The notes: generated by a model not told the origin, from the letters alone. Shown: positions 15,494 to 64,000, counted from the stretch's first letter. The stretch: 64,000 nucleotides of DNA from Verrucomicrobiia bacterium (GCA_041495285.1 JBGQCJ010000007.1:534-64533); one strand, 5' to 3'. Program-made: numbers and translations.

Positions 15494-15495
15494 TT

Positions 15496-31979: not shown

Positions 31980-32130
31980 CGGTAGCTGGAGAGGACCCAG
32001 TCGCTTAGGAATTTGTCGGGGTCGGCGAGGGCGGCCTTGGGAATGACGAACTCGGTCTGGCCGGTATTCGTTTTGATAAGGTTGAGGCCGAACTGGTAGT
32101 CTTTGAACAGCTCCCGGACACGCTGCCGCA
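31980..32130 (-). pseudogene. decayed duplicate of the 3-prime end of the ClpX-like gene (about 150 bp, about 95% identical to 33306..33443 plus 33557..33575)
   Basis: A direct DNA repeat CGGTAGCTGGAGA(G/C)GACCCAGTCGCT... is shared with the C-terminal coding end of 33296..34849. The copy carries a 113-bp internal deletion between AACTCCCGG short repeats and has no upstream reading frame. Confidence 0.6.
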
Positions 32131-33295: not shown

Positions 33296-34849
33296 CTATT
33301 CCTTGCGGTAGCTGGAGACGACCCAGTCGCTGAGGAATTTGTCGGGGTCGGCGAGGGCGGCCTTGGGAATGACGAACTCGGTCTGGCCGGTATTGGTCTT
33401 GATAAGGTTGAGGCCGAATTGGTAGTCCTTGAACAACTCCCGGCAAAGGTCCGTCACGGATTTGTGCGCGTGTTGGGCGCGGTCAATGATTTCCTCGACA
33501 GCATCACTGTCGATCGAGACGCGCAGTTTGTGTTTTTCCTCAAACTTGCGCTCGAACTCCCGGACACACTGCCGCATCACTTCGCGTTGCTCGTAGGCCG
33601 GCTCGTGCAAGATGCGCTGCAATTCCTCGTGAGGATGCTCCACGAGTTCGCGGGTGACGACGAACTGGTGGATGTTCGAGGACGGCAGCTCGAACTTGAA
33701 GTCGCGCAAGACGTGCTCGCAGACGGTGAGCAGGCCGCGCGCGCCGGTATTCTCCAGAGCCGCTTTCTCGGCGATGGCGTGCAGTCCTTCGTCGGAGAAA
33801 ATCACATCAATGCCGAAGGAATGAAAACTAGACTCGTATTGCCGGACGACCGAGCCTTCGCTTTGCCGGAGAATGTTATACAGATCGTCCACGCCCAGTT
33901 TGTCGAGCACGACGCGGACCGGTAGGCGGCCAACGAACTCCGGCTCGAAGCCGAACTTGATGAAGTCCTCGGTCTGCGCCTGGCGCATCAGGTCGGCTTG
34001 GCCGATGTCTTCGGCGAGATGACCGCCGAAACCGATCTGCGATTCGCGCAGGCGGCGGCGGACAATCTCGAGCATCTGATCGAACGCGCCGCTGACGATG
34101 AAGAGGATGTGCTTGGTGTTGATTGTCTCCCGTTTGACTTTGCCGCCGTGACGCTGAAACTCGAACGCCGCCTGTAGTTGCGCCTGAATGTCGGTCGGTG
34201 AACGGAGCGGCACCTCGGTTTCTTCCATCAGTTTGAGAAGATTGGTCTGCACGCCGCGGCCGCTGACGTCCCGGCCGATGATGTTGGCCGGCGTGGAGAT
34301 TTTGTCGATCTCGTCGAGGTAAACGATGCCGTACTGGGCCAGACGAATATTGCCGTCGGCGCGGTGGACGAGTTCGCGGACCAAATCTTCGACATCGCCG
34401 CCGACGTAACCGGTCTCGCTGAATTTCGTGGCATCGGATTTCACAAACGGCACGCCGATGAGGTCGGCGATGATCTTGATGAGATAGGTTTTGCCAACGC
34501 CGGTCGGGCCGATGAGCAGGACGTTTTGCTTCACATAATCGCGAAGTTCCTCGCCTTGTTCAGTGGCCTTGACGTGGTTGTAATGGTCGCAGACGGCGAT
34601 GGCGAGCGCCTTCTTGGCGTCTTCCTGCCGGATGACGTAACGGTCGAGGTGCGCCTTCACGTCTTTGGGTTTGAGGTTGAAATCAAACTCGACCTTGCGG
34701 CGTTTCGGTTCTTCCGCGGGTGGCGTGGTCTCGATGGTTTCCGGCTGAGGCGTGCCGGCAAAGACCACCCGGTCGCCGAATTCTTTCTTCATGAATTCGG
34801 AGAGCTTTTTCTGAATCTCATCCGGCGTTGGCAGCGGCTGATCGCTCAT
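33296..34849 (-). CDS. ClpX/HslU-family AAA+ unfoldase (ClpX-like, no N-terminal zinc finger, Lys/Glu-rich N-terminus)
   Basis: Walker A LLIGPTGVGKT. The ClpX-type signature VPFVKSDATKFSETGYVGGDVEDLVREL, the sensor region and a C-terminal small helical domain are present. At 517 aa it is longer than canonical ClpX. Confidence 0.7.
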   Translation of the reverse strand: MSDQPLPTPDEIQKKLSEFMKKEFGDRVVFAGTPQPETIETTPPAEEPKRRKVEFDFNLKPKDVKAHLDRYVIRQEDAKKALAIAVCDHYNHVKATEQGEELRDYVKQNVLLIGPTGVGKTYLIKIIADLIGVPFVKSDATKFSETGYVGGDVEDLVRELVHRADGNIRLAQYGIVYLDEIDKISTPANIIGRDVSGRGVQTNLLKLMEETEVPLRSPTDIQAQLQAAFEFQRHGGKVKRETINTKHILFIVSGAFDQMLEIVRRRLRESQIGFGGHLAEDIGQADLMRQAQTEDFIKFGFEPEFVGRLPVRVVLDKLGVDDLYNILRQSEGSVVRQYESSFHSFGIDVIFSDEGLHAIAEKAALENTGARGLLTVCEHVLRDFKFELPSSNIHQFVVTRELVEHPHEELQRILHEPAYEQREVMRQCVREFERKFEEKHKLRVSIDSDAVEEIIDRAQHAHKSVTDLCRELFKDYQFGLNLIKTNTGQTEFVIPKAALADPDKFLSDWVVSSYRKE

Positions 34850-37777: not shown

Positions 37778-38698
37778 ATGCGCATCGGCTTCATGATGCC
37801 GTACGATCCCGAGCGGATCAAATTCGCCCAGCAACACGGCTTCGGCAGCGTCGAGTTGCAGACAAGTCCCGGCTGCGGCTTCTTTCCCGGTGACGTTGGC
37901 TGGAAAGAGAAAGCCGACAAGGTGAAACACGCCTTCGCTGCTGCCGGCCTGAGGATTTCTTGTCTCGCCTGCTTTTACGTCAATCACATGGACGACCGCG
38001 AAGCCGACCGGCACAAGGAACTCGTTCGCAACTCAATCCTGCTCGCCGAAAAAATGGGTGTCGGCGTCGTCGGTGGATTCTCCGGTCGGATCATGGGCGA
38101 AGATTTGCCGAAGAGCCTGCCGAAGTTCCGCGAGATTTGGAGCGAACACGCCAAGTTCGCCGACGATCACGGCATCCGCATCGCATTCGAGCATTGCCCA
38201 ATGGGTTGGTACAACACACCTGCCAGCGGCAACAACATGATCTGCACGCCCGGCATCTGGGAACGCGCCTTCAACGAAGTGCCCAGCGACGCGCTCGGCT
38301 TGGAATGGGATGCCAGCCACCTCGTCTGCATGTTCATTGACCCGGTCGCCAACCTCCGCCAGTTCGGCAAACGCGTCTATCACGTCCACGCCAAAGACGC
38401 GCACGTCCACCGCGACCTGCTCGCCAAATACGGCTTCTGGCATCCCGGCGTCACCGAACACTGTTTCCCCGGCCTCGGCGACACCAACTGGGCGCTCGTC
38501 GTGAAAGAACTCCTTCGCCAAGGCTACACCAACGACCTCAACATCGAAGGCTGGCACGACGCCGTCTTCCGCGACCACAAAGACAAACCGCCACCCGACG
38601 TCGCCCAAAACGTTTCACAGACCGCCTTCCGTGACCTCGAAGACGCCGGCCTCCTCCTCGCCCTCAAACACCTCTCCCCATTCGTCCCGGCAGAATAA
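37778..38698 (+). CDS. sugar phosphate isomerase/epimerase (xylose-isomerase-like TIM barrel)
   Basis: Start at MRIGFMMPYD. The AP_endonuc_2/TIM-barrel pattern is present, with a conserved Glu/His/Asp metal-ligand spacing (IAFEHCP, HVHAKDAH, LNIEGWHD). Confidence 0.8.
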   Translation: MRIGFMMPYDPERIKFAQQHGFGSVELQTSPGCGFFPGDVGWKEKADKVKHAFAAAGLRISCLACFYVNHMDDREADRHKELVRNSILLAEKMGVGVVGGFSGRIMGEDLPKSLPKFREIWSEHAKFADDHGIRIAFEHCPMGWYNTPASGNNMICTPGIWERAFNEVPSDALGLEWDASHLVCMFIDPVANLRQFGKRVYHVHAKDAHVHRDLLAKYGFWHPGVTEHCFPGLGDTNWALVVKELLRQGYTNDLNIEGWHDAVFRDHKDKPPPDVAQNVSQTAFRDLEDAGLLLALKHLSPFVPAE

Positions 38699-38951
38699 CG
38701 CTCTGGTAGGGCGCGACCACGTGGAACGTGGCAAGCCGCCAGGCGCGCATCTCCGTTGTGCGCTGGTCTCCCGACCGCGCACGAATGTCGGCGTGAAGCT
38801 GAAGGATTCTGAAAGGGTCTCCACCGCCAAAGGCCATAATTTTCTTGCATTCACGGCTTTCGTTTGTTCTACTTCCGCCGCTAGGAGAAACACGGCGAGG
38901 CTGGCGTCACGTTTGCGTTTCCTCCTCCGTGTCGCTCCAGAGTCGCAGGGC
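38647..38951. repeat. dispersed duplicated block, copy 1: 3-prime end of the isomerase gene, block B, and a conserved 120-bp block X containing ATAATTTTCTTGCATTC; it lies upstream of the first beta-helix/CTD gene
   Basis: 38647-38697 is about 90% identical to 48728-48778. 38750-38787 is similar to 48447-48486. 38833-38951 is about 85% identical to 48790-48908, including ATAATTTTCTTGCATTC and GGCGTCACGTTTGCGTTTCCTCCTCCGT...CTCCAGAGTCGCAGGGCA. Confidence 0.75.
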
Positions 38952-39571
38952 ACAGTGACGTTCAACGTATCACGCGGGTCGCACCAAAGAGCGGTTCATC
39001 AGCGCGGAACTGTACCGTCGCGCCCTTTCTTCGCCACGATCGTGTTAAGCCTTGCACTCGTGGGACTTGCAGCCAAGTCATTCATTCCGGGGATTGTTGG
39101 CGATTTCGCGTGCCGGGTAGCCGCCGATTCCGGTAGCGCGACCACCGACGACAACGACGATGACGGCAAACCATCACCGGACAATGATTCCACCACCTGC
39201 AAGTTTGGCGATCTTACGAAGGCGATCCTTGTCACAGTTGACTTGGCGTTACCGCACTTGCTGATGCCTGTCCATGCCTTGGCGGTGCCTGATACGACCA
39301 CGGAAGCAGTTTTGCCGGATCATTTTCTGCCCAATGCCGAAATCGGGCCGCCAGGCGGTATCGCTCTTGGAGCGACCACGGGGCCACGTGCGGACTCGCT
39401 GCCGGGCACCGTCGGCACCGTGATACGCTCCGGCTGTTCGCGACGTGCACCCCTTCCTCACGCAGCAGTAACCCTCTGTGCTGCCGGCACCTATCCCAAT
39501 GACGTTGTCACGAACTACTGCGACCTCGGCGACGTGAAAAACGGAAAAGATACTGGAAGGGGAACACAATC

Positions 39572-42500
39572 ATGAACTCAAGACCGATGATCTTCTGGAT
39601 TGGATTGATGACGGCTGTTCTCGTTGCGCCGATGGCGCAAGCGGTCACCAACTTTGTGACCACCACCGCCGACAGCGGGGCCGGCTCGTTGCGCGAGGCC
39701 ATCTCCAACGCGAACAGCACGGCAGCGCTGGACTTCATTCACTTCAACATTTCGGGTACCGGGCCGTTTACCATCACCCCGGCCACCGCGCTGCCGACCA
39801 TCACCAATTCGGTGGTCATTGACGGTTACACACAGTCCGGCGCGAGTCAGAACACGTTGACGAATGGCGACGACGCGGTTCTGAAAATTGTGGTGCTCGG
39901 AACGCTGAATACGGATACTACCAACACCACGATCCGCGGGCTGGCGATCAAACAGATTCGCTTGGGCAATGAAGGCCCGTTGGGCGGCCACGTCGTCGAA
40001 GGAAACTTCATCGGACTCGATGCCACGGGCACGAACGACCTGGACGGAGGCGTCTTATCGGTCAACACTCCCAATAATCGAATTGGCGGCACGACGCCGG
40101 CGGCGCGCAATATTATCTCGGGTCACGGCACCCCTGTCAGCACGGCCGTCGGCATTGAGATGGCGGGACCGTTCGCCACGAACAATCTGATTCAAGGCAA
40201 CTTCATCGGCACGGACCGAACGGGCACCCTCGCCATCCCCAACACAGATCGCACCATTGTGTGCAATTCGTTCACCAAGAACAACACGATTGGCGGCACG
40301 AACAGCGGCGCGCGCAATGTCATCTCCGGCAACTCCGATCGCGGGATCGTGCTGGACGGCACCAACAACGTCGCGCAGGGCAATTTCATCGGCGTCGACG
40401 TGACCGGCGTGAATCCCTTGGGCAATACTCGCAGCGGTGTCGAGATTACCGGCTCCAACAATGTCTGCGGCGGGTTGGCCGCTGGTGCGGGAAATATCAT
40501 TGCTTATAACGGGGTGGGCGGAACGTCCAGCAATGGCGTTGAAGTCCAAAGCGGAGTGAAGTTCTATGTCATCCTCTCCAATTCGATCTACGACAACGCG
40601 GGTCTGGGGATCGACTTGTTTCCGCAAGGAGTCGTCAACTTGGGGTTTCCGGTCATCACGTCGGCCAGCAACTTGGTTGCGGGTACCGTCATCAAGGGAA
40701 CGTACACGCCCAGCGTCACCTCCCGCATCGAATTTTTTTCCAATCCTGACTGCGATTCCTCGGGCTTTGGCGAAGGCAAGACGTTGGTGATCTCGACCAA
40801 CCTCCTCGCCGACGCCGGCGGCAATTTCACCGTCACGTTGCCGACGATTCCGCCCGGTCTGTTCATGACCGCGACCGGGGGCGGCACTTCAGAATTTTGC
40901 CAGTGTCGGATGGTCGTCTTTGCCGGCAAGACGAATAGTTGGACCAACAGCGTCAGTGGCAACTGGAACAATGGCACCAACTGGTCGCTAGGCGGTCCGC
41001 CGTACATTTTGCTGGAGCAAGTCTTGATCACCAATGCGGCCAGCAAGACCGTCACCAACGACGGTGCGTTCCCCAGCACCATGAGCATCAGCAATCTCAC
41101 GATCAGCGCCCCGGGTGGGGCGGTCAACACGTTGTTGGTCAACGCCGGCACCAATACGCCATTGCGCATCGTCAACGCCTGCATCATTTCCAACGGCGGC
41201 GCGCTCGTGGTGACAAATTCGATCTGGCAGGTGGACGGGTTCGGCAGTATCTCCAACATCATCAACGGCAGCGCCACCGTGTTGGCCGGTTCCCGTTTGG
41301 TCTCCACACCCACCTACGTCGGCAGCGCTGCCGGCGCCAGTGGCACGCTCACCATCGCGGGCGGCAGCAATAGCGTGTTCGGCACACTCAGCCTCGGCTC
41401 GATCGCCAACGGGACCGGCACTGTCTGGGTGACCGACGGGAAATTGTTCCCGCCGTTGCTGCGCGTTGGGCAGTTCGGTTTCGGCCAGATGATTACTTCC
41501 AATGGCCTCGTGCAAAGCGGGGGCACGGTTTCATTTATCGGTTCGCAACCCGGCTCGCGCGGTCAGGTCACGGTAGCCGGTGGCACGAATATTTTTCCGT
41601 CGCTGACCATCGGCGAAATGAGCGGCGCGACCGGCTCCGTGTTAGTGAGCGACGGGCTGCTGCAAGTCAACGGCGACGTCCTGCATAGCCGCGGCACCTT
41701 CACCGTCGCCGGGGGCAACGCGAATCTCTTGGGAGAGTTTGACAATCGTCCGAGCAACATCGTGTGGATCACCGGCGGGCAAATGGCGGTGACTAACGGC
41801 AACATGTTCCCTGGACAGATCGTGGTTAGCAATGGCACGTTGCTGGCACGCGACCTGTTTCTCGGTAACTCTGTCGGTATCGCCATTCTGAGGGTTGACG
41901 GCGGAGTCGTCGCGCTGCCGAAAAGTTTCAACGGTCTGATTGTCGGTAACGGTTCCATCACCGGCAGTGTATGGCAAACCGGCGGGCAGATCATTCTGAC
42001 CAACACGACCCTGTCCATCGGTGGCCTGTTCGGTTCCGCAGTCGGCACCGTGACCGGCTCCAACGGCACGTTGCTGGCCAGCAACGTGTTTGTCGCGGCC
42101 ATCTCGAGCGGGCGCGGCACGTTCAACATTGCCGGCAGCACCAATCACGTCTACGCCAACCTGATTCTCGGCGACGAGTCCTGCATCGGCACCGGCATCG
42201 TCAACATGACCAGCGGCCAGCTCTTCGTGACCAACGCTGCCGGCAATGCCACCCTCGACGTTCGCAGCGGCACGCTCGCTATCAGCGGTGGTCTGTTGCA
42301 AGCCGACAAGATTATCATCACCAATCCCTGCGCACACTTCGTCAACAGCGGCGGCGCAGTCATTTACAACACCGCCGTGTTGCCGCCGAACGGCGACGCC
42401 GATGGTGACGGCATTCCCAACGGTTACGAGATCAGCCACGGCCTGAACGCGCTTGATCCCGCAAACGCGAATCAGGACACTGACGGCGATGGTCTGACCG

Positions 42501-42796
42501 ATTTGCAGGAGTACCTCGCCGGCACCGACCCGACCAACAGCGCGTCTGCATTTCGGGTCACGTCGATCGTCCGAACGAACAGCAACATCCGCATCACGTG
42601 GTCAACGGCCGGTGGTCACACCAATCGCGTGCTGATTGCAACGCCAGTGCCCGGCGGCAGCTTCACGAATGAGTTCAGCAATCTTAGCTCCTTCATTATC
42701 CTCCCCGGCTCGGGCGATACCAGCACCAACTACACTCACATTGGCGGCGCGACCAACTCCCCGTCGAACTACTACCGGATCCGTTTGATTCCATAG
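39572..42796 (+). CDS. secreted adhesin-like protein (1074 aa): N-terminal right-handed parallel beta-helix, PATR-like beta-strand repeats, TSP3-like repeats and the shared C-terminal domain
   Basis: Signal peptide MNSRPMIFWIGLMTAVLVAPMAQA. The N-terminus VTNFVTTTADSGAGSLREAISNANSTAALDFIHFNISGTGPFTITPATALPTITNSVVIDGYTQ is the classic beta-helix CASH-type start. Repeated (GTLTIAGGxNxV / GxGQMxxSNGxV)-like units follow. DADGDGIPNGYE and DTDGDGLTDLQEYLAGTDP repeats are present. Ends ...TSTNYTHIGGATNSPSNYYRIRLIP*. Confidence 0.85.
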   Translation: MNSRPMIFWIGLMTAVLVAPMAQAVTNFVTTTADSGAGSLREAISNANSTAALDFIHFNISGTGPFTITPATALPTITNSVVIDGYTQSGASQNTLTNGDDAVLKIVVLGTLNTDTTNTTIRGLAIKQIRLGNEGPLGGHVVEGNFIGLDATGTNDLDGGVLSVNTPNNRIGGTTPAARNIISGHGTPVSTAVGIEMAGPFATNNLIQGNFIGTDRTGTLAIPNTDRTIVCNSFTKNNTIGGTNSGARNVISGNSDRGIVLDGTNNVAQGNFIGVDVTGVNPLGNTRSGVEITGSNNVCGGLAAGAGNIIAYNGVGGTSSNGVEVQSGVKFYVILSNSIYDNAGLGIDLFPQGVVNLGFPVITSASNLVAGTVIKGTYTPSVTSRIEFFSNPDCDSSGFGEGKTLVISTNLLADAGGNFTVTLPTIPPGLFMTATGGGTSEFCQCRMVVFAGKTNSWTNSVSGNWNNGTNWSLGGPPYILLEQVLITNAASKTVTNDGAFPSTMSISNLTISAPGGAVNTLLVNAGTNTPLRIVNACIISNGGALVVTNSIWQVDGFGSISNIINGSATVLAGSRLVSTPTYVGSAAGASGTLTIAGGSNSVFGTLSLGSIANGTGTVWVTDGKLFPPLLRVGQFGFGQMITSNGLVQSGGTVSFIGSQPGSRGQVTVAGGTNIFPSLTIGEMSGATGSVLVSDGLLQVNGDVLHSRGTFTVAGGNANLLGEFDNRPSNIVWITGGQMAVTNGNMFPGQIVVSNGTLLARDLFLGNSVGIAILRVDGGVVALPKSFNGLIVGNGSITGSVWQTGGQIILTNTTLSIGGLFGSAVGTVTGSNGTLLASNVFVAAISSGRGTFNIAGSTNHVYANLILGDESCIGTGIVNMTSGQLFVTNAAGNATLDVRSGTLAISGGLLQADKIIITNPCAHFVNSGGAVIYNTAVLPPNGDADGDGIPNGYEISHGLNALDPANANQDTDGDGLTDLQEYLAGTDPTNSASAFRVTSIVRTNSNIRITWSTAGGHTNRVLIATPVPGGSFTNEFSNLSSFIILPGSGDTSTNYTHIGGATNSPSNYYRIRLIP

Positions 42797-42806
42797 GGAA
42801 CTGACA

Positions 42807-45125
42807 ATGAAGACATACCACATGATTGCAGCGGCAATCTTACTGGGCGCGATTCATCTGGACGAAGTCGAGGCGCAGAACAATAGTTGGACGAACATCA
42901 ACGCCGGCAAGTGGGAGACGAACGGCAACTGGTCGCTCGGCGTCGCGCCGGCGAGCACGCAATCCGGTACGTTCATCACGAATGCCTTCAGCAAGACGGT
43001 GACGATTGATTCAATCACGACCAACTTCCCCGGCACGATGACCATCAGCAATCTGACGGTGTCGGCGCCGTCGGTGCCCACCTCGTTCAACAGGCTGTCT
43101 CTGGATAACTCCGGCCTTGCGACGCCGCTGCGCATTCTCAATTTTCTCAAGGTGGACAGCGCGGGCACGTTGGTGGTGGGCACCAACTCGGTCCTGCAAG
43201 TGGACAATCCGACGTTCACCGGCTTTGTGAGCATTGATGGCGGCGGTTTTGTGATCGTCGTGGACGGCGGCACGCTCGCGGCCACCAATCAGACGACGTC
43301 CCTCGGTGGCCTCACCACGGGCGATATCCTTGTGAACAACGGCAACCTGAGGACCTTGAATCTTTCGATGGGCAACTTTCCCGGCGCAGTAGGCACATTG
43401 AGACTGCAAGCCGGTTTGGTCGAAGTGAAGTCCGTCTTGTCGCTCGGAGCCTCCGGAAGTTCGACCGCGGCGGTGTGGGTGACCGGCGGACAGCTCGTGG
43501 CGACCAACGCCACTACAACGATCGGGAATAGCAGTTCGGGCCGGTTGACCGTGTCGAACGGCACCGTGAATGCCGGAACTGTTACGGTGGCGCAAACGCC
43601 CGGCACAGCCGGGACGTTGACGGTGGCCGGCGGCACGTTCACGGCCGAGCGGCTCGTGGCGACGAACAGCAGCGCCACGATTCAGTTTCCCGCAGGCACG
43701 ATGACGCTGCGCGGCGCGGAGATCGGCAACAGTCTGGCGTTTGAGATTGGCGGAGCCGGGCAGACGGCGGTATTGAACCTTGTCGCCGGTACGAACCGCT
43801 TTGCCTTCAGCCTCTATGTCGGATCCTCGGCGAATGCCACCGGCACGTTGTGGATGACGGGCGGTCAATTGGTCGTCACCAACGCCATCACTTCCATCGG
43901 CGAGTCCGGTGTTGGACAGATGACGCTTTCTAACGGCATCTGGCTGGCAAATGGAGTCGTCGTTGGGAGAAATGCAGGTTCACAGGGGACGCTGACGATT
44001 GCGGGAGGTACGAATACCGTCATCAACGGTGGGGTGAGTGTCGGCCTCGGTTCGAATGCGGTCGGCGCGGTCTGGATTGTCGGCAACCAGGCGCGACTGG
44101 CGACAGTTACCACAAACGTTTCCAGCTCCATTTCACTCGGGGGCAACGACGGCACCGGGCAACTGAGCATTTCAAACGGCAGTGTCGAGACGTTGAGCTT
44201 GCTCATCGGGAGCGGCCTTCGGTCGCGCGGCACCGTAACGGTCGCGGGCGGTGAGTTGATCGTGCACGGCGCTTTGCCTGTTGGCCACCAACAAACCTCT
44301 ACCGGCACTGTTTGGATCACCAGCGGACAGCTCATCGTCACCAACGATTCCACTTTCGTTGGTAACCTTGGCAAAGGGCAAATGACCGTCTCCAACGGCA
44401 CGTGGCGGGCAACCGACGTGACTGTCGGCGGCGCGTCAGGCTCGCAAGGCACACTGGCCATCGCCGGCGGCATCAGCAGTGTGTACTCGAACCTAACGGT
44501 CGGTAATTTCGCCTGCAGCGCGACCGGCATCGTCAACGTCACCGCCGGCCAACTTCGCGTGACGAACAACGCCGCGAATGCCGTGCTCGAGGTGCGCAGC
44601 GGCACGTTGACCCAAAGCGGCGGCACGCTGGACGTTGACCGGCTCATCATCACGAACGACTGTGGCCGCTTCGTGCATACCGGCGGAACGCTGATCACCG
44701 GACTGATTACTCTCAGCCCGTTTGGTGATGCGGATGGCGATGGAATACCGAATGACTGGGAACTCGCGGCCGGGCTTGATCCATTCAATCCGAATGATGC
44801 CGGCTTGGACGAGGACGGCGATGGATTGACGAATCTGCAAGAGTACTTCACCGACACCGACCCGCATGATGCGACCAAGTACCTGCACATCACCTCGATT
44901 GTTCGCACCAACAACGATATTCGTATCACGTGGCCGACGGAAGAGTTCTATGGCCTCGGCATATTTTACCGGGTGCTATCGGGGACAAATCTGCTGACTG
45001 GTGTCACTAACAATTTGAGTCCAAATATCTTGGGCCCATTTGGCAGCTCGACCAATTACCTCGACGTCGGCGGCGCTACGAATTCCCCTCGTCGGTTCTA
45101 TCGTGTCCTCGGCAACATTGACTAG
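42807..45125 (+). CDS. secreted paralog (772 aa) with PATR-like beta-strand repeats, TSP3-like repeats and the shared C-terminal domain
   Basis: Signal peptide MKTYHMIAAAILLGAIHLDEVEA. Tandem ~40-aa units are present (TGTLWMTGGQLVVTNAITSIGESGVGQMTLSNGIWLANGVVVGRNAGSQGTLTIAGGTNTV...). DADGDGIPNDWE and DEDGDGLTNLQEYFTDTDP repeats follow. Ends ...SSTNYLDVGGATNSPRRFYRVLGNID*. It starts 11 nt after the previous gene. Confidence 0.85.
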   Translation: MKTYHMIAAAILLGAIHLDEVEAQNNSWTNINAGKWETNGNWSLGVAPASTQSGTFITNAFSKTVTIDSITTNFPGTMTISNLTVSAPSVPTSFNRLSLDNSGLATPLRILNFLKVDSAGTLVVGTNSVLQVDNPTFTGFVSIDGGGFVIVVDGGTLAATNQTTSLGGLTTGDILVNNGNLRTLNLSMGNFPGAVGTLRLQAGLVEVKSVLSLGASGSSTAAVWVTGGQLVATNATTTIGNSSSGRLTVSNGTVNAGTVTVAQTPGTAGTLTVAGGTFTAERLVATNSSATIQFPAGTMTLRGAEIGNSLAFEIGGAGQTAVLNLVAGTNRFAFSLYVGSSANATGTLWMTGGQLVVTNAITSIGESGVGQMTLSNGIWLANGVVVGRNAGSQGTLTIAGGTNTVINGGVSVGLGSNAVGAVWIVGNQARLATVTTNVSSSISLGGNDGTGQLSISNGSVETLSLLIGSGLRSRGTVTVAGGELIVHGALPVGHQQTSTGTVWITSGQLIVTNDSTFVGNLGKGQMTVSNGTWRATDVTVGGASGSQGTLAIAGGISSVYSNLTVGNFACSATGIVNVTAGQLRVTNNAANAVLEVRSGTLTQSGGTLDVDRLIITNDCGRFVHTGGTLITGLITLSPFGDADGDGIPNDWELAAGLDPFNPNDAGLDEDGDGLTNLQEYFTDTDPHDATKYLHITSIVRTNNDIRITWPTEEFYGLGIFYRVLSGTNLLTGVTNNLSPNILGPFGSSTNYLDVGGATNSPRRFYRVLGNID

Positions 45126-48100
45126 GTGAGAAAGGAAACTATGAAAAATATTTCGTATCGGCTCTTGTTGGTTGGAATGCTACTCTTTGGCAGCAACGTC
45201 GAAGGTGTGCTGACGACGAACAGTTGGTTTCTCTTCGGCGGGAAGTGGGAAGATGGCACAAAGTGGTCGGCGGGCTCCCCGTCCCTCTTAAATGCTGTAA
45301 ACACTATCACCAACGATTTGTCGGCCATCACCGTCACCATCGACACCACCACGGTGACTCAGCACGTGATGGCCCTTACCAGCCTGACCGTCAGCAACCT
45401 CTTTCTCGGGCGCGGCTCGGTCATTACGCATACGCTGTTCATGAATAACGCCAACAATACCCCCGGCAACATCGGCCTGACCATCCTGAGCAACTTCACT
45501 ATCAACGCCACCGGCATCCTCTCGATCACCAACTCCGACTTGCGGGTCACGAATCCGACCGGCGGGTTATTCATCAACGGCACCGCGTTGCACAACTTCG
45601 GAACGATCACCTGCACCAATCTGTCCGTTGGCCGAACCGGCGTGGGCACGATGACTGTCTCCAACGGCACATTGATCACTCGCAACCTGAATGTGGCCGA
45701 GCTTTCCGGCTCGCAAGGCACGTTCAACATCGCAGGCGGGTCGGTCACGTCTCGCAATATGCTCGTGGCGCTTTCGGGCCTGACCGGCACGGTGTGGATG
45801 ACCGGCGGCCAACTCACGGTCTCTAACGAATCCACAGCTTTGGGCGACCCCGGCGTCGGCCAAATGACGGTTTCCAACGGCACATGGGCGGCGAGCATCG
45901 TCTCGGTCCGGCAAGGCACACTGACCATCGCCGGTGGGACTCACAAGTTTTATAGCCTGGCCATTGCTTCAGGCGCCAGCACACTCACCGCAGCGGTGTG
46001 GATGGTTGGTGGCAACGTCGCGATCACCAACACGACAACGGCTTTCCCCGGTTTCACCAATGGTACCGCTGTGGGCTTGAATGGTTTCGGACAAATGACG
46101 ATGTCCAACGGCACATTCTTGGGGCGCGACATGTACGTCGGCACCAACACCGGCTCGGTCGGCACATTCACGATGGCCGGCGGCACCAACACGCTGACGT
46201 CGCTTCTCAGCGTGGGCGGACTGCCCGGCGCGACTGGCGCGGTCTGGATAACCGGCGGGCGGTTCGCTGTCACCAACAACAACACGCAGATCGGGGTCAG
46301 TGGTGTGGGGCAGATTACGCTCTCCAACGGCACGTGGCTGGCGCGGGATGTGTACGTCGGCGTCAATGCCAGCTCGCGTGGCACACTCACCTATGCCGGC
46401 GGCACCAACATCCTGTCGTCGGTGCTCCAACTCGGCATCAACAGCGGCGTGACCGGCACATTATGGATGACCGATGGACGACTTGTCGTGACCAACGTTG
46501 CATCCAGCGTTATCATCGGCTCCAGTGGCGTTGGTCAAATGGCTGTGTCCAATGGCGACTGGTTGGCCCGTGAAGTTTTCATCGCGACCAACGCCGGCTC
46601 GGCCGGCACGTTGAACATCGCCGGCGGCAGCGGCCTCGTGACTTCCAACATGATCCTCGGCAACTTTGCCTGCTCTTCGACCCCCATCGTCAACATGACC
46701 GCCGGCAGCTTGATTGTGTCCAACCCCAACCCGGTCATTGCCGCGAAACTGGAAGTGCGCAGCGGCACGTTCACTCACAGCGGCGGAGATTTGGTCCTGC
46801 GCAATCTCGTGATCACGAACGCTTGCGCCCGCTTTCTGCACACCGGTGGCACGCTAAAGATCACGGGAGTACTTATCCTCGATCCCAATATGGACGCCGA
46901 TGGCGACGGGATCCCCAACAACTACGAACTGTTCAGCCCCGTTCTGTTCCAATTGAACCCGAACGATGCCGGCGAAGATCCCGACGGCGACGGGTTCACG
47001 AACTTGGAGGAATACCTGAACGGCACCGATCCGACCGTAAACGATTTCCACATCACCGCCATCGCGCGGGAAGGAAACGATATTCGGATCACGTGGGCGA
47101 CGGTCGGCGGCACGACGAATCGCGTGCTCGTGTCCACGGGCGCGGCGGGCGGATCATTCACGAACAACTTCACCAACTTGAGTCCTCGCATCTTCGTTGC
47201 CGGCACCGGTGCAACCAGCACCAATTACCTCGACAGCGGCGGCGCGACCAACACGCCGGCGCGCTACTACCGCGTGCGGCGGAGTCTCGAGCCAGGCGGG
47301 GCGCGTTTCCTCTTCGACGCCGGCCACGCCCAGAGCGCCGGCAACGCGGATTGGGTCGTCGATGCCGACGTTCGCAACATCGTCTGGAACAGCTCGGGCA
47401 CGTTCACGACCGGTGGCAGCGACTCCAATGCGCAGCGCATCCCGACGCCGCCGGCCAGCGGAATCATTTCCAGCACGCCGGAGACGTATTGGGACGGCGG
47501 AATCTCCGCGTGGGCGGTGGACCTCGTCAAGCGCGGCCATTCCGTCGAGACACTGCCGGCAGGCGTGCAGTTCACCTACGGCACGGCCAACGCGCAAGAC
47601 TTGAGCAACAACTACGATGTCGTGGTCGTGGACGAGCCGAACATTCTGTTCACGCTCGTCGAGAAACAGGCGCTGCTCAGCTTCGTTACAAACGGCGGCA
47701 GTCTGTTCATGATTTCCGACCACACCAGCTCGGATCGAAATAGCGATGGCGTAGACTCGCCTGAAATCTGGATGGATTTTCTTACGAACAATCTGGTCGC
47801 GAACAATCCGTTCGGCATCGTGTTTCCGTCCTCGAGCGCGAGCGGGACAAACACGTTCAATCACAATATCGTCGGTGACCCGATCCTGAACGGCCCGGTC
47901 GGGCTGGCGACGAACACCGCCTATTTCGCCGGCAACCGATTCCAGATTGACCACACGAAGAATCCAACCGTGATCAGCCACATGTGGTTCGGCACCGCCG
48001 TCGATTCCAACAACCTGTGCGCGGTGGCCTCGTTGCGCTACGGCAATGGCCGCGTCGTGGTGGTCGGCGACAGTTCGCCGATCGAAGACGGTACGGGCGA

Positions 48101-48203
48101 CCCGGGCGATGGACTGTTCAACGGCTACACCGGCGACCTCGGCGAGACCAATCGCATTTGGATACTCAACGCCAGCGAATGGCTTGCCGCGCCCTTTCAG
48201 TGA
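45126..48203 (+). CDS. secreted paralog (1025 aa): PATR-like repeats, TSP3-like repeats and a complete copy of the shared CTD, followed by an extra ~300-aa C-terminal domain (class-I glutamine-amidotransferase/ThuA-like by inference)
   Basis: Signal peptide (MKNISYRLLLVGMLLFGSNVEG). The CTD is internal here (...ATSTNYLDSGGATNTPARYYRVRRSLEP at about aa 700) and is followed by ARFLFDAGHAQSAGNADWVVDAD...YDVVVVDEPNILFTLVEKQALLSFVTNGGSLFMISDHTS.... It starts 1 nt after the previous stop. Confidence 0.8.
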   Translation: MRKETMKNISYRLLLVGMLLFGSNVEGVLTTNSWFLFGGKWEDGTKWSAGSPSLLNAVNTITNDLSAITVTIDTTTVTQHVMALTSLTVSNLFLGRGSVITHTLFMNNANNTPGNIGLTILSNFTINATGILSITNSDLRVTNPTGGLFINGTALHNFGTITCTNLSVGRTGVGTMTVSNGTLITRNLNVAELSGSQGTFNIAGGSVTSRNMLVALSGLTGTVWMTGGQLTVSNESTALGDPGVGQMTVSNGTWAASIVSVRQGTLTIAGGTHKFYSLAIASGASTLTAAVWMVGGNVAITNTTTAFPGFTNGTAVGLNGFGQMTMSNGTFLGRDMYVGTNTGSVGTFTMAGGTNTLTSLLSVGGLPGATGAVWITGGRFAVTNNNTQIGVSGVGQITLSNGTWLARDVYVGVNASSRGTLTYAGGTNILSSVLQLGINSGVTGTLWMTDGRLVVTNVASSVIIGSSGVGQMAVSNGDWLAREVFIATNAGSAGTLNIAGGSGLVTSNMILGNFACSSTPIVNMTAGSLIVSNPNPVIAAKLEVRSGTFTHSGGDLVLRNLVITNACARFLHTGGTLKITGVLILDPNMDADGDGIPNNYELFSPVLFQLNPNDAGEDPDGDGFTNLEEYLNGTDPTVNDFHITAIAREGNDIRITWATVGGTTNRVLVSTGAAGGSFTNNFTNLSPRIFVAGTGATSTNYLDSGGATNTPARYYRVRRSLEPGGARFLFDAGHAQSAGNADWVVDADVRNIVWNSSGTFTTGGSDSNAQRIPTPPASGIISSTPETYWDGGISAWAVDLVKRGHSVETLPAGVQFTYGTANAQDLSNNYDVVVVDEPNILFTLVEKQALLSFVTNGGSLFMISDHTSSDRNSDGVDSPEIWMDFLTNNLVANNPFGIVFPSSSASGTNTFNHNIVGDPILNGPVGLATNTAYFAGNRFQIDHTKNPTVISHMWFGTAVDSNNLCAVASLRYGNGRVVVVGDSSPIEDGTGDPGDGLFNGYTGDLGETNRIWILNASEWLAAPFQ

Positions 48204-48221: not shown

Positions 48222-48344
48222 ACGACCAACTTCGCCACCATCTTCGCTGTCACCAACGTTACCGGCACTAGGACCAGCTACCTCGACGTCGGCGCCGCCA
48301 CGAATAGGCCGAGTTTCTATTATCGGGTGCGATTGGTTCCGTAG
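48222..48344 (+). pseudogene. orphan remnant of the shared C-terminal domain (last ~40 codons, no upstream gene body)
   Basis: An open frame of only 41 codons translates to TTNFATIFAVTNVTGTRTSYLDVGAATNRPSFYYRVRLVP*. This reproduces the family tail (FTNxF..TN...TSTNYLDxGGATNxPxRYYRVRL) 19 nt after the stop of 45126..48203. Confidence 0.65.
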
Positions 48345-48405
48345 GAGCGGCCTCCCGGCCGCGATCCTCTGGGCCGGTCGCGACCGGGAGGTCGTTCCTA
48401 CAACC
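48341..48405. repeat. second copy of the GC-rich palindromic element (GTAGGAGCGGCCTCCCGGCCGCGATC...GTCGTTCCTACAA)
   Basis: The 28-bp core is identical to 23052-23079. Imperfect arms GTAGGAGCGGCCTCCCGGCCGCGA and TCGCGACCGGGAGGTCGTTCCTAC. It overlaps the stop codon of the CTD remnant. Confidence 0.7.
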
Positions 48406-48446: not shown

Positions 48447-48908
48447 GTGCGCTGTATCCTCTCCGTTATGCGCGGGTCTTCCGACCGCGCACAAGCTCCG
48501 GGTTGTAAGACCTCGCGTTCAACGCACACGTCGAGCACATGAGACCGTCGCCGAACATTGGAGGCGAGGAGGGGATGTTTGCGTTGACTTCTGCGCTTGA
48601 TGCATAGCACTACTATGTATCGTGTCTGCTCCGGCTCGCGTAAAGACTGAAGCAGCGCAATGCATCGCTATCCGACATATCAACACGGGCAACTGTCGGC
48701 TGAGGAGCGCCACGATCTCGAACACGACGGCCTCCTCCTCGCCCTCAAACACCTCTCCCAATTCGTACCCGCAGAGTAATTGTCTCGCAGGCTATAATTT
48801 TCTTGCATTCGGGGCCGCGTTCTGGTCAACTCCGCCATTCGGAGAAACGAAGGGGCTGGCGTCACGTTTGCGTTTCCTCCTCCGTATCCCTCCAGAGTCG
48901 CAGGGCAA
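48447..48908. repeat. dispersed duplicated block, copy 2 (rearranged: block B, isomerase-tail fragment, block X), upstream of the FG-GAP/CTD gene
   Basis: See copy 1 at 38647..38951. The order of sub-blocks differs between copies. The isomerase-tail fragment here (…LLLALKHLSQFVPAE*) has no gene body. Confidence 0.7.
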
Positions 48909-49545
48909 CGATGAAGACGAAGCTGATCGCGGTGGCTTCTTGGGCCGTGTTTCTCGTATCGGCCGGGTTGGAGTATGGGTTGGAGATCGACTTTCCTCTC
49001 ATGCCGCCGGTATGGTTGGTAATAGCAGTTTGTGCTTTGATAGGTGCCACCGCCCACGCCTCAATCAGTTCCACTAACCCTTCGCGCTTCATCATCAGCG
49101 CTGACGCGCTTGCGAAAAGCTGTGCATCGCCGATGCCGTTGAAAACAGCGCCCGCTGAAGCCGAGTTTGCAAGCCGAGTTAGACGAGACGCCGCTGTCGT
49201 GTGCGGCAAACGCGGCGGTGTCGTCTCTGCCGCAATCAGCGGGCCTACAAGACACGCAGATTTTGGGGCATTCGTTGTAGGTCGCGTGCCGAGTTTGACG
49301 AGACGCGATGATGCCGCTGGCTCATCGCAAACCTCCCGCGCCGTACGGCCGGTCATCTTTCTGGGCGCCGCGACAACACGAGGGCCTCCCTGCGCCGGTG
49401 ACCAGAGTCCGCGTCTGTTTGACGGCGCGCTGGACCCCCCGGCCCCGCACTTCTGCGCCGCCCCACCTTTCTCCGAGTTCCACCTTCGCGATTCATCGTC
49501 AGCACGCAACGTTACCCCTGCAGCCAATCCCGCAGCATCACTTGC

Positions 49546-51303
49546 ATGGAGGATCAGATGAGACTTCTCATTCGCAGTACACTGACCATTGCTTTAATTG
49601 CGCTGGCGATGAGCCTACCGGGCCTAACGGCCAACGCCCAACCCGCCCAGCAAGCCTATGTCAAAGCCTCCCACACCGCAATGGGCGGGGGGCGCCTGTT
49701 CGGTTACTCGGTGGCGGTATCGAGCGACACGATGGTGATCGGGGCGGAATCGGAGAACAGCAACGCCACCGGCGTGAACGGCGACCAGGCCAACAACAAC
49801 GCACTCGGCTCCGGCGCGGCTTACGTATTCGTGCGCAGTGGAACCAACTGGAGCCAACAGGCCTATCTCAAGGCCTCCAACACCGATGCGGGTGACCACT
49901 TCGGCTGGTCGGTGGCGATGTCAGACGACACGATGGTGATCGGCGCGCCTTATGAGTCCAGCAACGCCACCGGCGTGAACGGCGTCCAGACCAACAACGG
50001 CGCTGCTTTCTTCTCTGGCGCGGTCTACGTCTTCGTGCGGAGCGGTACGAACTGGAGCCAGCAGGCCTATCTGAAGGCCTCCAACACCGATGCGAATGAC
50101 CACTTCGGCTACTCGGTGGCGGTGTCGGGCGACACGGTAGTCGTCGGGGCGGACCAGGAGGCGAGCAACGCCACCGGCGTGAACGGCGTCCAGACCAACA
50201 ACAGCGCCGGATTCTCCGGTGCGGCCTACGTCTTCGTGCGCAGTGGAACGAACTGGAGCCAACAGGCCTATCTCAAGGCCTCCAACACCGGGCTCAGTGA
50301 CCAGTTCGGCTGGTCGGTGGCGGTGTCAGGCGACACGGTAGTCGTCGGGGCGTACACGGAGTCGAGCAACGCCACCGGTGTGAATGGCGTCCAGACCAAC
50401 AATCTCGCGAGCAACTCCGGCGCGGCCTACGTGTTCGTGCGCGGCGGAACCAACTGGAGCCAGCAGGCCTATCTCAAGGCCTCTAACACCGAGTCGGACG
50501 ACAGGTTCGGTACTTCGGTGGCGGTGTCAGGCGACACGGTGGTGGTGGGCGCGTTTCAGGAGGACAGCAACGCCACCGGCGTGAACGGCGTCCAGACCAA
50601 CAACAGCCTTACCAACCCCGGCGCAGCGTATGTGTTCGTGAGGAGCGGGACGAGCTGGAGCCAGCAGGCGTATCTCAAGGCCTCCAACACCGATGGGGGT
50701 GACTGGTTCGGCATTTCCGTGGCGGTGTCAGGTGACACGGTGGTCGTTGGGGCGTACGGTGAGGACAGCAACGCCACCGGCGTGAACGGCGTCCAGACCA
50801 ACAACGTTGCAAACGGCTCCGGCTCCGGCGCGGCCTATGTGTTCGTGCGGAGCGGTACGAGCTGGAGCCAGCAGGCGTATCTCAAGGCCTCCAACACCGG
50901 TGTGGGTGACGAGTTCGGCTACTCGGTGGCGGTGTCAGGCGACACGGTGGTGGTCGGGGCCATAGATGAGGCCAGCAACGCCACCGGCGTGAACGGCAAC
51001 CAGAGCGACAACAGCGCAACCAGCTCCGGCGCGGCCTACGTCTTCACCGGCTTAGTCACCTCAACACCTCTCAGCGTCAGCAGCCTTGCGCGCGTTGGCA
51101 ACTGCATTGGCGTAACGTGGAACACCGCACCCGGCATGACCAATGAGTTGCAGGCCACCGCGTGTGGTGGGGGTTACAGCACAAACAGCTTCACCGCCAT
51201 CTTCAGCGTCACAAATGCCGTTGGTTCGGTGACCAACTATCTCGACTGTGGCTGCGTAACCAATTCCCCCTCGCGCTTCTATCGGGTTCGGCTGGTGCAG
51301 TAA
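49546..51303 (+). CDS. secreted 7-bladed FG-GAP-like beta-propeller protein with the shared C-terminal domain (585 aa)
   Basis: Signal peptide MRLLIRSTLTIALIALAMSLPGLTANA. Seven ~67-aa repeats of the form QQAYLKASNTxxxDxFGxSVAVSGDTVVVGAxxExSNATGVNGVQTNNSxxxSGAAYVFVRSGTNWS. Ends ...VTNYLDCGCVTNSPSRFYRVRLVQ*. Confidence 0.8.
   Translation: MEDQMRLLIRSTLTIALIALAMSLPGLTANAQPAQQAYVKASHTAMGGGRLFGYSVAVSSDTMVIGAESENSNATGVNGDQANNNALGSGAAYVFVRSGTNWSQQAYLKASNTDAGDHFGWSVAMSDDTMVIGAPYESSNATGVNGVQTNNGAAFFSGAVYVFVRSGTNWSQQAYLKASNTDANDHFGYSVAVSGDTVVVGADQEASNATGVNGVQTNNSAGFSGAAYVFVRSGTNWSQQAYLKASNTGLSDQFGWSVAVSGDTVVVGAYTESSNATGVNGVQTNNLASNSGAAYVFVRGGTNWSQQAYLKASNTESDDRFGTSVAVSGDTVVVGAFQEDSNATGVNGVQTNNSLTNPGAAYVFVRSGTSWSQQAYLKASNTDGGDWFGISVAVSGDTVVVGAYGEDSNATGVNGVQTNNVANGSGSGAAYVFVRSGTSWSQQAYLKASNTGVGDEFGYSVAVSGDTVVVGAIDEASNATGVNGNQSDNSATSSGAAYVFTGLVTSTPLSVSSLARVGNCIGVTWNTAPGMTNELQATACGGGYSTNSFTAIFSVTNAVGSVTNYLDCGCVTNSPSRFYRVRLVQ
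49648..51070 (+). repeat. seven near-identical tandem DNA repeats of ~201-204 bp encoding the FG-GAP-like blades
   Basis: GGCCTATCTCAAGGCCTCCAACACCG... and GGTGTCAGGCGACACGGTGGT... recur with >85% nucleotide identity at ~200-bp spacing. Confidence 0.8.
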
Positions 51304-63787: not shown

Positions 63788-64000
63788 CTATGGGCAGTTC
63801 GGCGTCCCGGATGACAACCGGATGCGGTAGTACCGCGACGGTACGTTGGTCGCACCGCCGACATCCACCCAGTTGGTGGTGACGGCGCCGCTGCCGGACA
63901 CGAACAACGTGGCGAGACTAATGTAGTTGTTTGTGTAGTTGCCGCTGATGATCGGGTTCGCCAGTTGCACGACGTTGGTCGAACCGCCGACGGTCAGCCA
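63788..64000 (-). CDS. C-terminal end of a further CTD-family protein; the gene continues beyond the window
   Basis: The minus-strand frame is open to the window edge. The tail ...VTTNWVDVGGATNVPSRYYRIRLSSGTPNCP* carries the family signature (TN..DVGGATN.P.RYYRIRL). Confidence 0.7.
   Translation of the reverse strand, partial: WLTVGGSTNVVQLANPIISGNYTNNYISLATLFVSGSGAVTTNWVDVGGATNVPSRYYRIRLSSGTPNCP

Follow-up and report, generated by a model that had tools for sequence, protein, structure and literature searches.

Our analysis of a 64,000-nucleotide stretch of DNA from a Verrucomicrobiia bacterium (GCA_041495285.1, JBGQCJ010000007.1:534-64533), referred to here in its entirety as the window, leads us to propose that two similar upstream regions within it, copies A and B, are old paralogous versions of a promoter and leader cassette that is specific to the lineage and precedes operons for surface proteins, and that the open reading frame (ORF) carried by each copy acts in cis through translational coupling. 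We assign this model, which is built on sequence comparison, a probability of about 0.6. The constant part of the cassette would consist of a promoter, a 5' untranslated region (UTR) of ~75 nt, an AGG ribosome-binding site, an NTG start codon and a 24-codon stretch that includes a conserved motif, M2. The next element would be a translated leader ORF from one of two unrelated families, with a membrane-targeting hydrophobic N-terminus, a near-unconstrained spacer, an X-G-P-P motif and an unconstrained tail. Such a cassette would place differing cargo operons under one transcriptional control, and cargo translation would depend on ribosomes having read the leader ORF to its end, with coupling through the overlap of the leader stop and the cargo ATG. 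The elements concerned are as follows.

38824 to 38954, plus strand: block X, copy A, a promoter-like region and ~75 nt of 5' UTR (nhmmer match 38824-39032, E 7.5e-55)
38845 to 38873, plus strand: putative sigma-70-type promoter of copy A (-35 TTGCAT at 38845-50, 17-nt spacer, TGt at 38865-67, TCTACT at 38868-73)
38884 to 38938, plus strand: possible 5' UTR hairpin H1 (GGAG..ACACGG.GAGG..loop..CCUC..CCGUGU..CUCC), from RNAalifold
38955 to 39575, plus strand: leader ORF A, of 206 codons, starting at GTG and ending in a TGA that overlaps the cargo ATG at 39572 (ATGA)
38976 to 39025, plus strand: motif M2, codons 8-24 of ORF A (GGGTCGCAC...GTTCATCAGCACGCAACGTTACCCCTGCGCCC in relatives), with nucleotide-level constraint
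39024 to 39083, plus strand: hydrophobic segment of leader A, residues 24-43, a signal anchor or the h-region of a signal peptide
39312 to 39353, plus strand: top conserved motif of family A, LPDHFLPNAE(T/I)GPP, reading EIGPP in the window
39367 to 39433, plus strand: H3, a nucleotide-invariant patch with hairpin potential (GGAGCGACCACGG ... CCGTGAnACGCTCC), beginning 13 nt past the GPP codons that end at 39353
39572 to 48203, plus strand: cargo operon A, three large secreted repeat proteins (1074, 772 and 1025 residues) with TSP3 repeats and a shared C-terminal domain (CTD)
48780 to 48910, plus strand: block X, copy B (-35 TTGCAT at 48803-08, TGg at 48823-25, -10 TCAACT at 48826-31)
48911 to 49561, plus strand: leader ORF B, of 216 codons, starting at ATG and ending in a TGA that overlaps the ATG at 49558
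49352 to 49390, plus strand: family B motif VIFLxxAxTRGPP, in which T156, R157, G158, P159 and P160 are invariant (alignment A3)
49489 to 49527, plus strand: M2-like DNA of copy B, 31-69 nt before the ATG at 49558 and in a different frame from M2 in A
49558 to 51303, plus strand: cargo B, an FG-GAP repeat protein with the shared CTD (Pfam PF14312, E 2e-87), annotated from 49546

Block X and M2 together form a module of ~190 nt that is 72-88% conserved in 12 distinct DNA loci, nine of A type and three of B type with the window's two copies counted. Full copies were recovered with a hidden Markov model (HMM) at E values of 1e-46 to 1e-63 in related loci L004-L013 and L017; L013 and L017, which carry block X, are two of the three distinct loci that encode relatives of leader B. 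A protein search with the ORF called over region A returned 13 homologous clusters, all metagenomic (E 1e-40 to 1e-65), and in the DNA of the loci that encode them nucleotide conservation is 72-79% and continues through the whole leader ORF. Conservation sets in sharply at the promoter-like motif, at the position of ATAATTTTCTTGCATTC, and the flanks upstream of it are unrelated: the neighbouring genes there encode LacI, FIST, ABC ATPase and TPR proteins, and are divergent in L006 and L007. The module lies beside a gene for a large protein with a signal peptide, which is always downstream and of variable type. Examples include a 1199-residue repeat protein, a 966-residue HYR protein and a 595-residue Chlam_PMP-like protein, and the cargo proteins of different loci are 30-50% identical at best, where they can be aligned. 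The orientation of the module and its position relative to the start codon and ORF are constant, each related locus has one copy, and the HMM found no block X outside a leader and secreted-gene context in the ~200 kb of DNA examined. The original prediction of a cis-regulatory cassette shared by the two loci is strongly reinforced by the finding that the block precedes a leader ORF and genes for large secreted proteins in 12 loci, and we infer the regulation itself from this arrangement.

Among GTDB species representatives, the block X DNA pattern had no match and the leader protein profile found no relative; a scan of Joint Genome Institute (JGI) metagenomes added two further loci only, and a profile search of 1.84 billion representatives gave 22 matches. 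The window itself has near-identical counterparts (99.95-99.99%) in a JGI metagenome contig (3300053058 Ga0534156_0000123) and in a contig of a metagenome-assembled genome (JBGPOQ010000043, GCA_041488115.1). Two of the related loci have peculiarities of their own. At L010 (923-1075) the cargo has collapsed to 50 residues, a signal peptide joined to the last CTD residues, with the leader cassette intact. L005 has genes for a phage-type integrase and a DUF6088 protein (775-2010) ~6 kb upstream of its cassette, and no link between them and the cassette was found.

The 12 aligned copies of block X (alignment A4) contain the conserved pattern T(G/T)GAC(A)-17 nt-TGnT(C)TA(C)T, in which columns T32, G34, T52, T55, A58 and T60 are invariant. 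From this alignment we assigned by eye a sigma-70-type promoter with an extended -10 element, which would place the start of transcription near 38880 in copy A and 48838 in copy B and give a 5' UTR of ~75 nt. The -35-like element is TTGCAT in both window copies and TGGACA in most relatives, and copy B matches the block X model over 48780-48930 (model positions 9-165, E 2e-32). The TATAAT-like element that had originally been noted in block X lies upstream of both the -35-like and the extended -10-like elements, and it is not conserved in the relatives in alignment A4: we rejected TATAAT (38835-40 and 48793-98) as a -10 because relatives read CGAATT or CAAATT. A sigma-54 reading of TTGCA was also rejected, since the GG-N10-GC spacing is unmet and the window copies lack the GG. 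The extension of block X up to a genuine start codon, also predicted, is borne out by an NTG (ATG, GTG, TTG or CTG) at the start position in 11 of the 12 aligned DNA copies and by an invariant AGG 4-7 nt upstream, the putative ribosome-binding site. L007 has an additional ATG directly before the NTG, from which its gene was called, and the start is ATG in several relatives known as protein only (P0006, P0008, P0022, P0030 and P0033). Between the putative promoter and the start, the long, imperfect hairpin H1 has five pairs with changes on both sides, compared with 1.7 in shuffles (5/500).

The pairwise diversity of M2 at codon positions 1, 2 and 3 is 0.18, 0.11 and 0.15, without periodicity, and rare codons (TTA, GTT and CAT) are frozen. 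M2 DNA is also found upstream of non-A ORFs, and the copy B segment at 49489-49527 was identified both by nhmmer (model positions 175-210, E 0.0012) and by blastn (92-100% identity over 20-30 nt to five other loci). These data suggest that M2 is constrained as nucleic acid, whether DNA or RNA, rather than as protein. In the protein-only relatives, block X and M2 are followed by a B-type ORF in P0016, P0019 and P0033 and by a short tail in P0032 and P0034; in P0031 they are fused straight to an 826-residue protein, at the hydrophobic core of its own signal peptide, and in P0035 the cargo's own signal peptide comes ~20 codons after them. Because what follows is so varied, we regard block X and M2 as the constant unit and the body of the leader ORF as a variable insert, one that would be dispensable given that P0031 and P0035 carry block X and M2 with no leader ORF. 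A protein search with a short-peptide profile of block X and M2 was dominated by low-information word matches and recovered four proteins.

Both leader ORFs appear to be translated genes under purifying selection in patches, with ratios of non-synonymous to synonymous substitution (dN/dS) of 0.1-0.5. We judge them to be genes because the frame is open in all loci, variation is biased to third positions and dN/dS is low in patches. For family A, the frame is open in all ten loci, the remaining five frames have 1-9 stops each, and indels of 3 and 6 nt stay in frame. Its dN/dS (Nei-Gojobori) is 0.46 for codons 25-136; by part, it is 0.39 in the hydrophobic segment, 0.74 over codons 46-99, 0.26 over codons 100-136 and 0.64 after the motif. 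Diversity at codon positions 1, 2 and 3 peaks at the third both in the hydrophobic segment (0.25/0.13/0.36) and over codons 100-136 (0.14/0.13/0.31). For family B (homologues P0016-P0019, E 1e-13 to 1e-21), the frame is open in four loci, and dN/dS is 0.10-0.18 in an N-terminal block of two hydrophobic segments (from the window, L013 and L017, the copies with block X), 0.07-0.53 in the VIFLxxAxTRGPP block, 0.64-0.99 in the central part (for finite dS) and 0.5-1.2 beyond GPP.

These comparisons bear on several features of the ORFs as first described. Both ORFs exist as predicted, with the start of ORF B moved by one base, from 48910 to 48911. The hydrophobic N-termini attributed to them are evident in Kyte-Doolittle profiles of each: leader A reaches a maximum of 2.04 at window 26, with values of at least 1.6 at residues 20-31, and leader B has windows of at least 1.6 at residues 5-6 and 24-36, the segments being conserved in both families. 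Their atypical third-position composition is likewise real, GC content at third codon positions (GC3) being 0.61 in both window ORFs against 0.74-0.82 in neighbouring genes, with negative codon log-odds. It had been left open whether they are real membrane proteins or translated or untranslated leaders; the coding signature in the comparative data is that of translated sequence and largely sets the untranslated option aside. Gene callers disagree at copy B, where JGI called a minus-strand ORF. The window's leader A has a lower GC3 (0.61) than all of its homologues (0.69-0.77) and reads EIGPP, not ETGPP. This copy may be under somewhat relaxed selection, and its pairwise dN/dS of 0.23-0.52 is not unusual.

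The two families share an architecture and little else. What is constrained in both is the N-terminal hydrophobic segments, a short X-G-P-P motif (ETGPP in A, TRGPP in B) and an overlap of the stop with the cargo ATG; spacer and tail, which make up the remainder of each ORF, evolve almost neutrally. From hydrophobic segment to motif the spacer is ~90 residues in A (residue 43 to 133) and ~105 in B (residue 52 to 160), and the motif lies 73 (A) or 56 (B) residues from the stop. The stop and start overlap as ATGA at 7 of 9 A-type and 3 of 4 B-type loci (10 of 13 in all), with gaps of at most 13 nt at the others. In an hhalign comparison of A and B only the M2-encoded N-terminus aligns (probability 72%), and the shared part is limited to a 24-codon N-terminal stretch in some B-family relatives. 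Beyond the M2-encoded stretch, the families are thus not detectably homologous at the level of sequence. The likeness of HFLPNAETGPP in A to IFLxPAxTRGPP in B was noted by eye only. Neither ORF nor any homologue matched Pfam-A or NCBIfam, the best hit being DUF2946 at E 0.029, below the cut-off and in 1 of 12 members. In the confident genes of the window, GPP occurs once in a total of 11,587 residues, and its presence as the top motif in two unrelated ORFs is therefore unlikely to be chance, a point that we noticed after the fact.

Within family A, L120, P121, D122, L125, P126, N127, E129, G131 and P133 are invariant, and the family also has two conserved cysteines and an Asp-rich DDxDDDGKP stretch. 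An AlphaFold2 model of the family has a predicted local distance difference test score of 52 and two helices only, one of them at residues 23-43, and the model thus suggests that leader A has no folded domain. The two arms of H3 (13 and 14 nt) are invariant, third codon positions included, in six of seven loci, and L007 retains the 5' arm only. The arms can pair (fold of -32.6 kcal/mol, z -1.2); being invariant, they show no covariation. In family B, the first Pro codon of GPP is CCT in four of four loci. A pairing of CCTCC in these Pro codons with the Shine-Dalgarno sequence of the cargo, seen by eye in the window and L013, was dropped because there are only three or four sequences. A 51-nt patch inside ORF B (window 49236-49286) is 96% identical to L013 5166-5216, with the surrounding ORF near-neutral, and contains an inverted repeat (CCTACAA...TTGTAGG). 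We rejected the idea that it is a dispersed repeat, since no other copy exists in the DNA examined.

The overlap of leader stops with cargo start codons was part of the original prediction. It stands for ORF A, with ATGA at 39572; for ORF B the equivalent ATGA overlap is with the ATG at 49558. This ATG has GGAGGA 4 nt upstream as well as the overlap with the leader stop, a geometry also seen in L013 and L017, and from the sequence 49558 is more likely than 49546 to be the start of the FG-GAP cargo gene. The CTD of cargo B is 44% identical to that of the first protein of cargo operon A. Further CTD genes (...FY(K/R)(I/V)R...) occupy the minus strand at 3200-11956, 12059-15607, 15496-18669 and 63815-64000, and neither block X nor a leader ORF lies upstream of them. 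The cassette therefore serves only a subset of CTD genes. On the proposed check of whether further copies of block X always precede CTD genes, further copies were found in related loci; at least three other CTD units of the window lack block X, and so it does not mark all CTD genes. A scan of the window also gave weak matches to the Akkermansia-named Amuc_1099 model and to a T5SS/PEP-CTERM-associated repeat, which hint at most at a Verrucomicrobiota-like lineage.

How copies A and B came to share their upstream DNA can be traced through three sub-blocks, the third of which is block X. The other two, and the gene from which the first derives, are the following.

37778 to 38698, plus strand: xylose-isomerase-like TIM-barrel gene (Pfam PF01261, E 6e-30), whose last 26-29 codons are the source of the fragment in copy B
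38633 to 38710, plus strand: sub-block 1, copy A, the isomerase 3' end and 12 nt (matches 48714-48791)
48714 to 48791, plus strand: sub-block 1, copy B, an orphan isomerase tail (ending in DLEHDGLLLALKHLSQFVPAE and a stop; matches 38633-38710)
38750 to 38782, plus strand: sub-block 2, copy A, a GC-rich hairpin block 52 nt past the isomerase stop, terminator-like or like a repetitive extragenic palindromic (REP) element
48460 to 48492, plus strand: sub-block 2, copy B, 91% identical to 38750-38782

That three sub-blocks are shared in differing order, as originally described, is confirmed. Sub-block 1 is 85% identical over 78 nt and 89% over its 66 coding nt, sub-block 2 is 91% identical, and block X is 84% identical with four gap openings (38831-38952 against 48789-48907). 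In copy A the order is tail, hairpin, X; in copy B it is hairpin, 220 nt, tail, X. Each sub-block core occurs exactly twice in the 64 kb, compared with 0.00-0.05 expected by chance, and a profile HMM found no third copy of block X in the window. The orphan isomerase C-terminus reported in copy B is also present. By tblastn, isomerase residues 278-306 are the sole part of the gene that recurs near copy B (48690-48776, 65% amino acid identity), with no further isomerase sequence upstream of the tail, which identifies it as an orphan gene end. In the isomerase gene itself this tail has ordinary C-ending codons. An orphan isomerase 3' end beside block X in copy B implies that tail and block X were duplicated as a unit, in agreement with the earlier proposal that the upstream region was copied in this way. 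We envision that a segment including the isomerase 3' end was duplicated and that subsequent deletions spared only the tail. The duplication is evidently old, since the window's B copy of block X is no nearer to A than to L006, from another metagenome sample (76% and 81% identity, respectively). Sub-block 2, whose best hairpin (GUGCGC.GGUC/GACCGCGCAC) forms in a fold of -29.7 kcal/mol (z -1.4), was not found in related loci outside the window.

Orphan gene ends form a patchwork in front of copy B. The frame of the third cargo gene, which stops at 48201-03, runs on past a second stop (48219-21) to 48344 and enters an orphan end of the shared CTD (closing with TSYLDVGAATNRPSFYYRVRLVP and a stop). 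This is the decayed end of a CTD gene, and truly non-coding spacer DNA ahead of copy B therefore begins at ~48345. A near-perfect 25-bp palindrome (GUAGGAGCGGCCUCCCGG...CCGGGAGGUCGUUCCUAC) at 48341-48405 (-51.7 kcal/mol, z -6.4) overlaps the end of this fragment and is probably a REP-like or terminator element. Elsewhere in the window, a 138-nt direct repeat with 95% identity (31980-32117 and 33306-33443) flanks a DUF7901 gene. Its copy at 33306-33443 is the 3' end of an MCM/AAA-type gene (33296-34849, minus strand) and the copy at 31980-32117 is intergenic, making this a second duplication of an orphan gene end, comparable to that of the isomerase tail.

Several observations weigh against the model of a promoter and leader cassette coupled to its cargo. 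The comparison has just 10-12 sequences to draw on, and because some of them come from the same studies their independence is limited. A consensus promoter scanner called no promoter in block X, because the -10 element does not have the canonical A at position 2. The start codon is CTG in five loci and L009 has no NTG. H1 has a z of -1.3 in A and is not the minimum free energy fold in B; for H1 and for H2, the hairpin in M2, covariation is weak or absent and folding energies are no better than those of shuffles. The low dS in parts of ORF A could come from gene conversion among paralogues instead of a function at the RNA level, and the atypical GC3 (0.61) and negative codon scores might mean that the window ORFs are decaying copies. 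Finally, the coupling is deduced purely from the geometry of stop and start.

The strongest competing explanation, which we consider possible and on balance unlikely, is that the leaders are ordinary small membrane or periplasmic proteins that act in trans as an anchor, chaperone or assembly factor for the adhesin-like cargo and merely share its operon and promoter. Operon partners are often functionally linked, the ORFs are real, with purifying selection in parts and a hydrophobic N-terminus each, and the DDxDDDGKP stretch that family A has along with its cysteines recalls the TSP3 repeats of the cargo. A protein of this kind is hard to reconcile, however, with a spacer and tail that are near-neutral (dN/dS 0.64-1.2), with the lack of any AlphaFold2 fold for family A, with the occupation of one slot by two unrelated families of the same architecture and with the existence of cassettes that have no ORF at all. 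The diversity of the cargo, which spans beta-helix, FG-GAP, HYR and Chlam_PMP types, is also a poor fit to a specific partner.

A more speculative reading, in our estimate rather unlikely, is that the leader ORFs encode force-sensitive arrest peptides of a new, RAPP-like class (RGPP/TGPP), which would gate the production of giant secreted surface proteins instead of components of Sec or YidC. The ribosome would pause at X-G-P-P until the N-terminal segment engaged the membrane translocon; only released ribosomes would get to the end of the ORF and hand over at ATGA to the cargo start, so that cargo would be made only as secretion capacity allows. M2 and H3, the patches frozen at the nucleotide level, would serve as the RNA components of this switch, and the module would spread by duplication ahead of new cargo genes. 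SecM, ApdA/ApdP and the "RQH family" are RAPP-like arrest peptides or monitoring substrates (Fujiwara et al. 2024, PMC10987492; Sakiyama et al. 2021, PMC7897499). Among the RAPP-like motifs listed by Fujiwara et al. (2024, PMC10987492) is RGPP, for which arrest in vitro was shown with two peptides; TGPP served as a query motif in their study. Substrates that monitor Sec/YidC were sought there as small ORFs of unknown function directly upstream of secA, secDF or yidC, with an N-terminal signal or transmembrane segment, a conserved and commonly RAPP-like C-terminal sequence and a spacer of more than 30 residues (Fujiwara et al. 2024), and whether RAPP-type arrest occurs outside the Sec/YidC context is a question that the same study raises explicitly (PMC10987492). 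Like these peptides, our leaders are small, unannotated ORFs directly upstream of and touching the next gene; each has an N-terminal targeting segment (by Kyte-Doolittle), a poorly conserved spacer well over 30 residues long (~90 in A and ~105 in B) and one short X-G-P-P motif, which is all that the distinct families share. Unlike them, the leaders precede genes for beta-helix/TSP3 and FG-GAP surface proteins, not secA, secDF or yidC. Their motif lies 56-73 codons before the stop, whereas that of arrest peptides falls within the last 15-20 residues; the leader ORF overlaps the cargo start, a logic of coupling, whereas arrest peptides unmask a Shine-Dalgarno sequence from a distance; and the window's A copy reads IGPP, not RGPP or TGPP. 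Since most RAPP-like sequences from ordinary proteins do not arrest (PMC10987492), and since the leaders neither precede sec or yidC genes nor carry their motif at the C-terminus, we have not filed the leaders as monitoring substrates.

The remaining two explanations fare far worse. That the region is a long, structured untranslated 5' UTR or non-coding RNA in which the 200-codon ORFs are chance frames of GC-rich DNA could draw on the GC3 of 0.61 and negative codon log-odds of the window copies, the disagreement of gene callers over the JGI minus-strand ORF at B and the nucleotide-level conservation of M2 and H3, and is largely refuted and very improbable, because the same frame is open in ten A-type and four B-type loci at ~25% nucleotide divergence while the other five have stops in nearly every locus, indels are in frame, variation falls mainly at third positions, dN/dS dropping to 0.07-0.26 in motif regions, the stop sits on the cargo ATG and Rfam 15, which at its gathering threshold finds two tRNAs only in the window, has no match in 38700-39700 even at E <=1. 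That a mobile or repetitive element, REP-like or akin to a miniature inverted-repeat transposable element (MITE), left block X and its companions behind, or that they stem from a neutral segmental duplication, with no regulatory role in either case, would suit the GC-rich hairpin of sub-block 2 after gene ends, the 25-bp palindrome at 48341-48405, the patchwork of orphan gene ends upstream of B and the duplication at 31980 and 33306, and is just as improbable and largely refuted, given that block X, unlike REP and MITE repeats, occurs twice in the 64 kb and once in each related locus, always in the same orientation and at a fixed distance from the start codon and downstream ORF, with no copy out of context in the ~200 kb examined, no target duplications and no terminal inverted repeats (block ends checked in the window only), and is 72-88% conserved across metagenomes between unrelated upstream DNA and far more divergent cargo.

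The promoter and leader cassette that we favor has points of contact with three other systems. An ATGA overlap of stop and start in translationally coupled gene pairs is a textbook feature of bacterial operons, and the leader stop overlaps the downstream ATG in this way in 10 of 13 loci. In such a pair the leader would be unusual in that it evolves fast, keeping only its targeting segment and one motif, carries its own conserved promoter and UTR, and belongs to a package redeployed before unrelated cargo. The extended signal peptide region of type V secreted proteins is a conserved N-terminal extension before the hydrophobic core of the signal peptide in large surface proteins. Here too a conserved extension, SRGSHRRAVHQHATLPLRP, precedes a hydrophobic core, and in P0031 it is fused to the 826-residue protein; the sequences are not similar, however, and what is conserved here is the nucleotide sequence: third positions are frozen, the same DNA also serves in a second reading frame, and the conservation reaches upstream into non-coding DNA. 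The upxY/upxZ leaders of Bacteroides capsule loci are conserved leader regions that head multiple variable surface-structure loci, and they resemble the cassette in that one conserved 5' module is repeated before several variable surface-structure operons per genome. Unlike those loci, the cassette has no NusG-like gene, and we saw no invertible promoter repeats.

The module was previously unannotated. A shared promoter and leader and a coupled upstream ORF are each of a known kind, and a link to RAPP-type peptides is plausible. Our findings give a testable role to two unannotated protein families and one unannotated non-coding module, and they call for caution in annotation, since leader ORFs that gene callers treat inconsistently appear to be real despite poor codon statistics. 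If the cassette works as we propose, it illustrates how an uncultivated lineage can place many different adhesin-like operons under a single promoter and leader; and if its leaders do prove to be arrest peptides, RAPP-like leader peptides would extend from housekeeping secretion genes to the secreted cargo itself.

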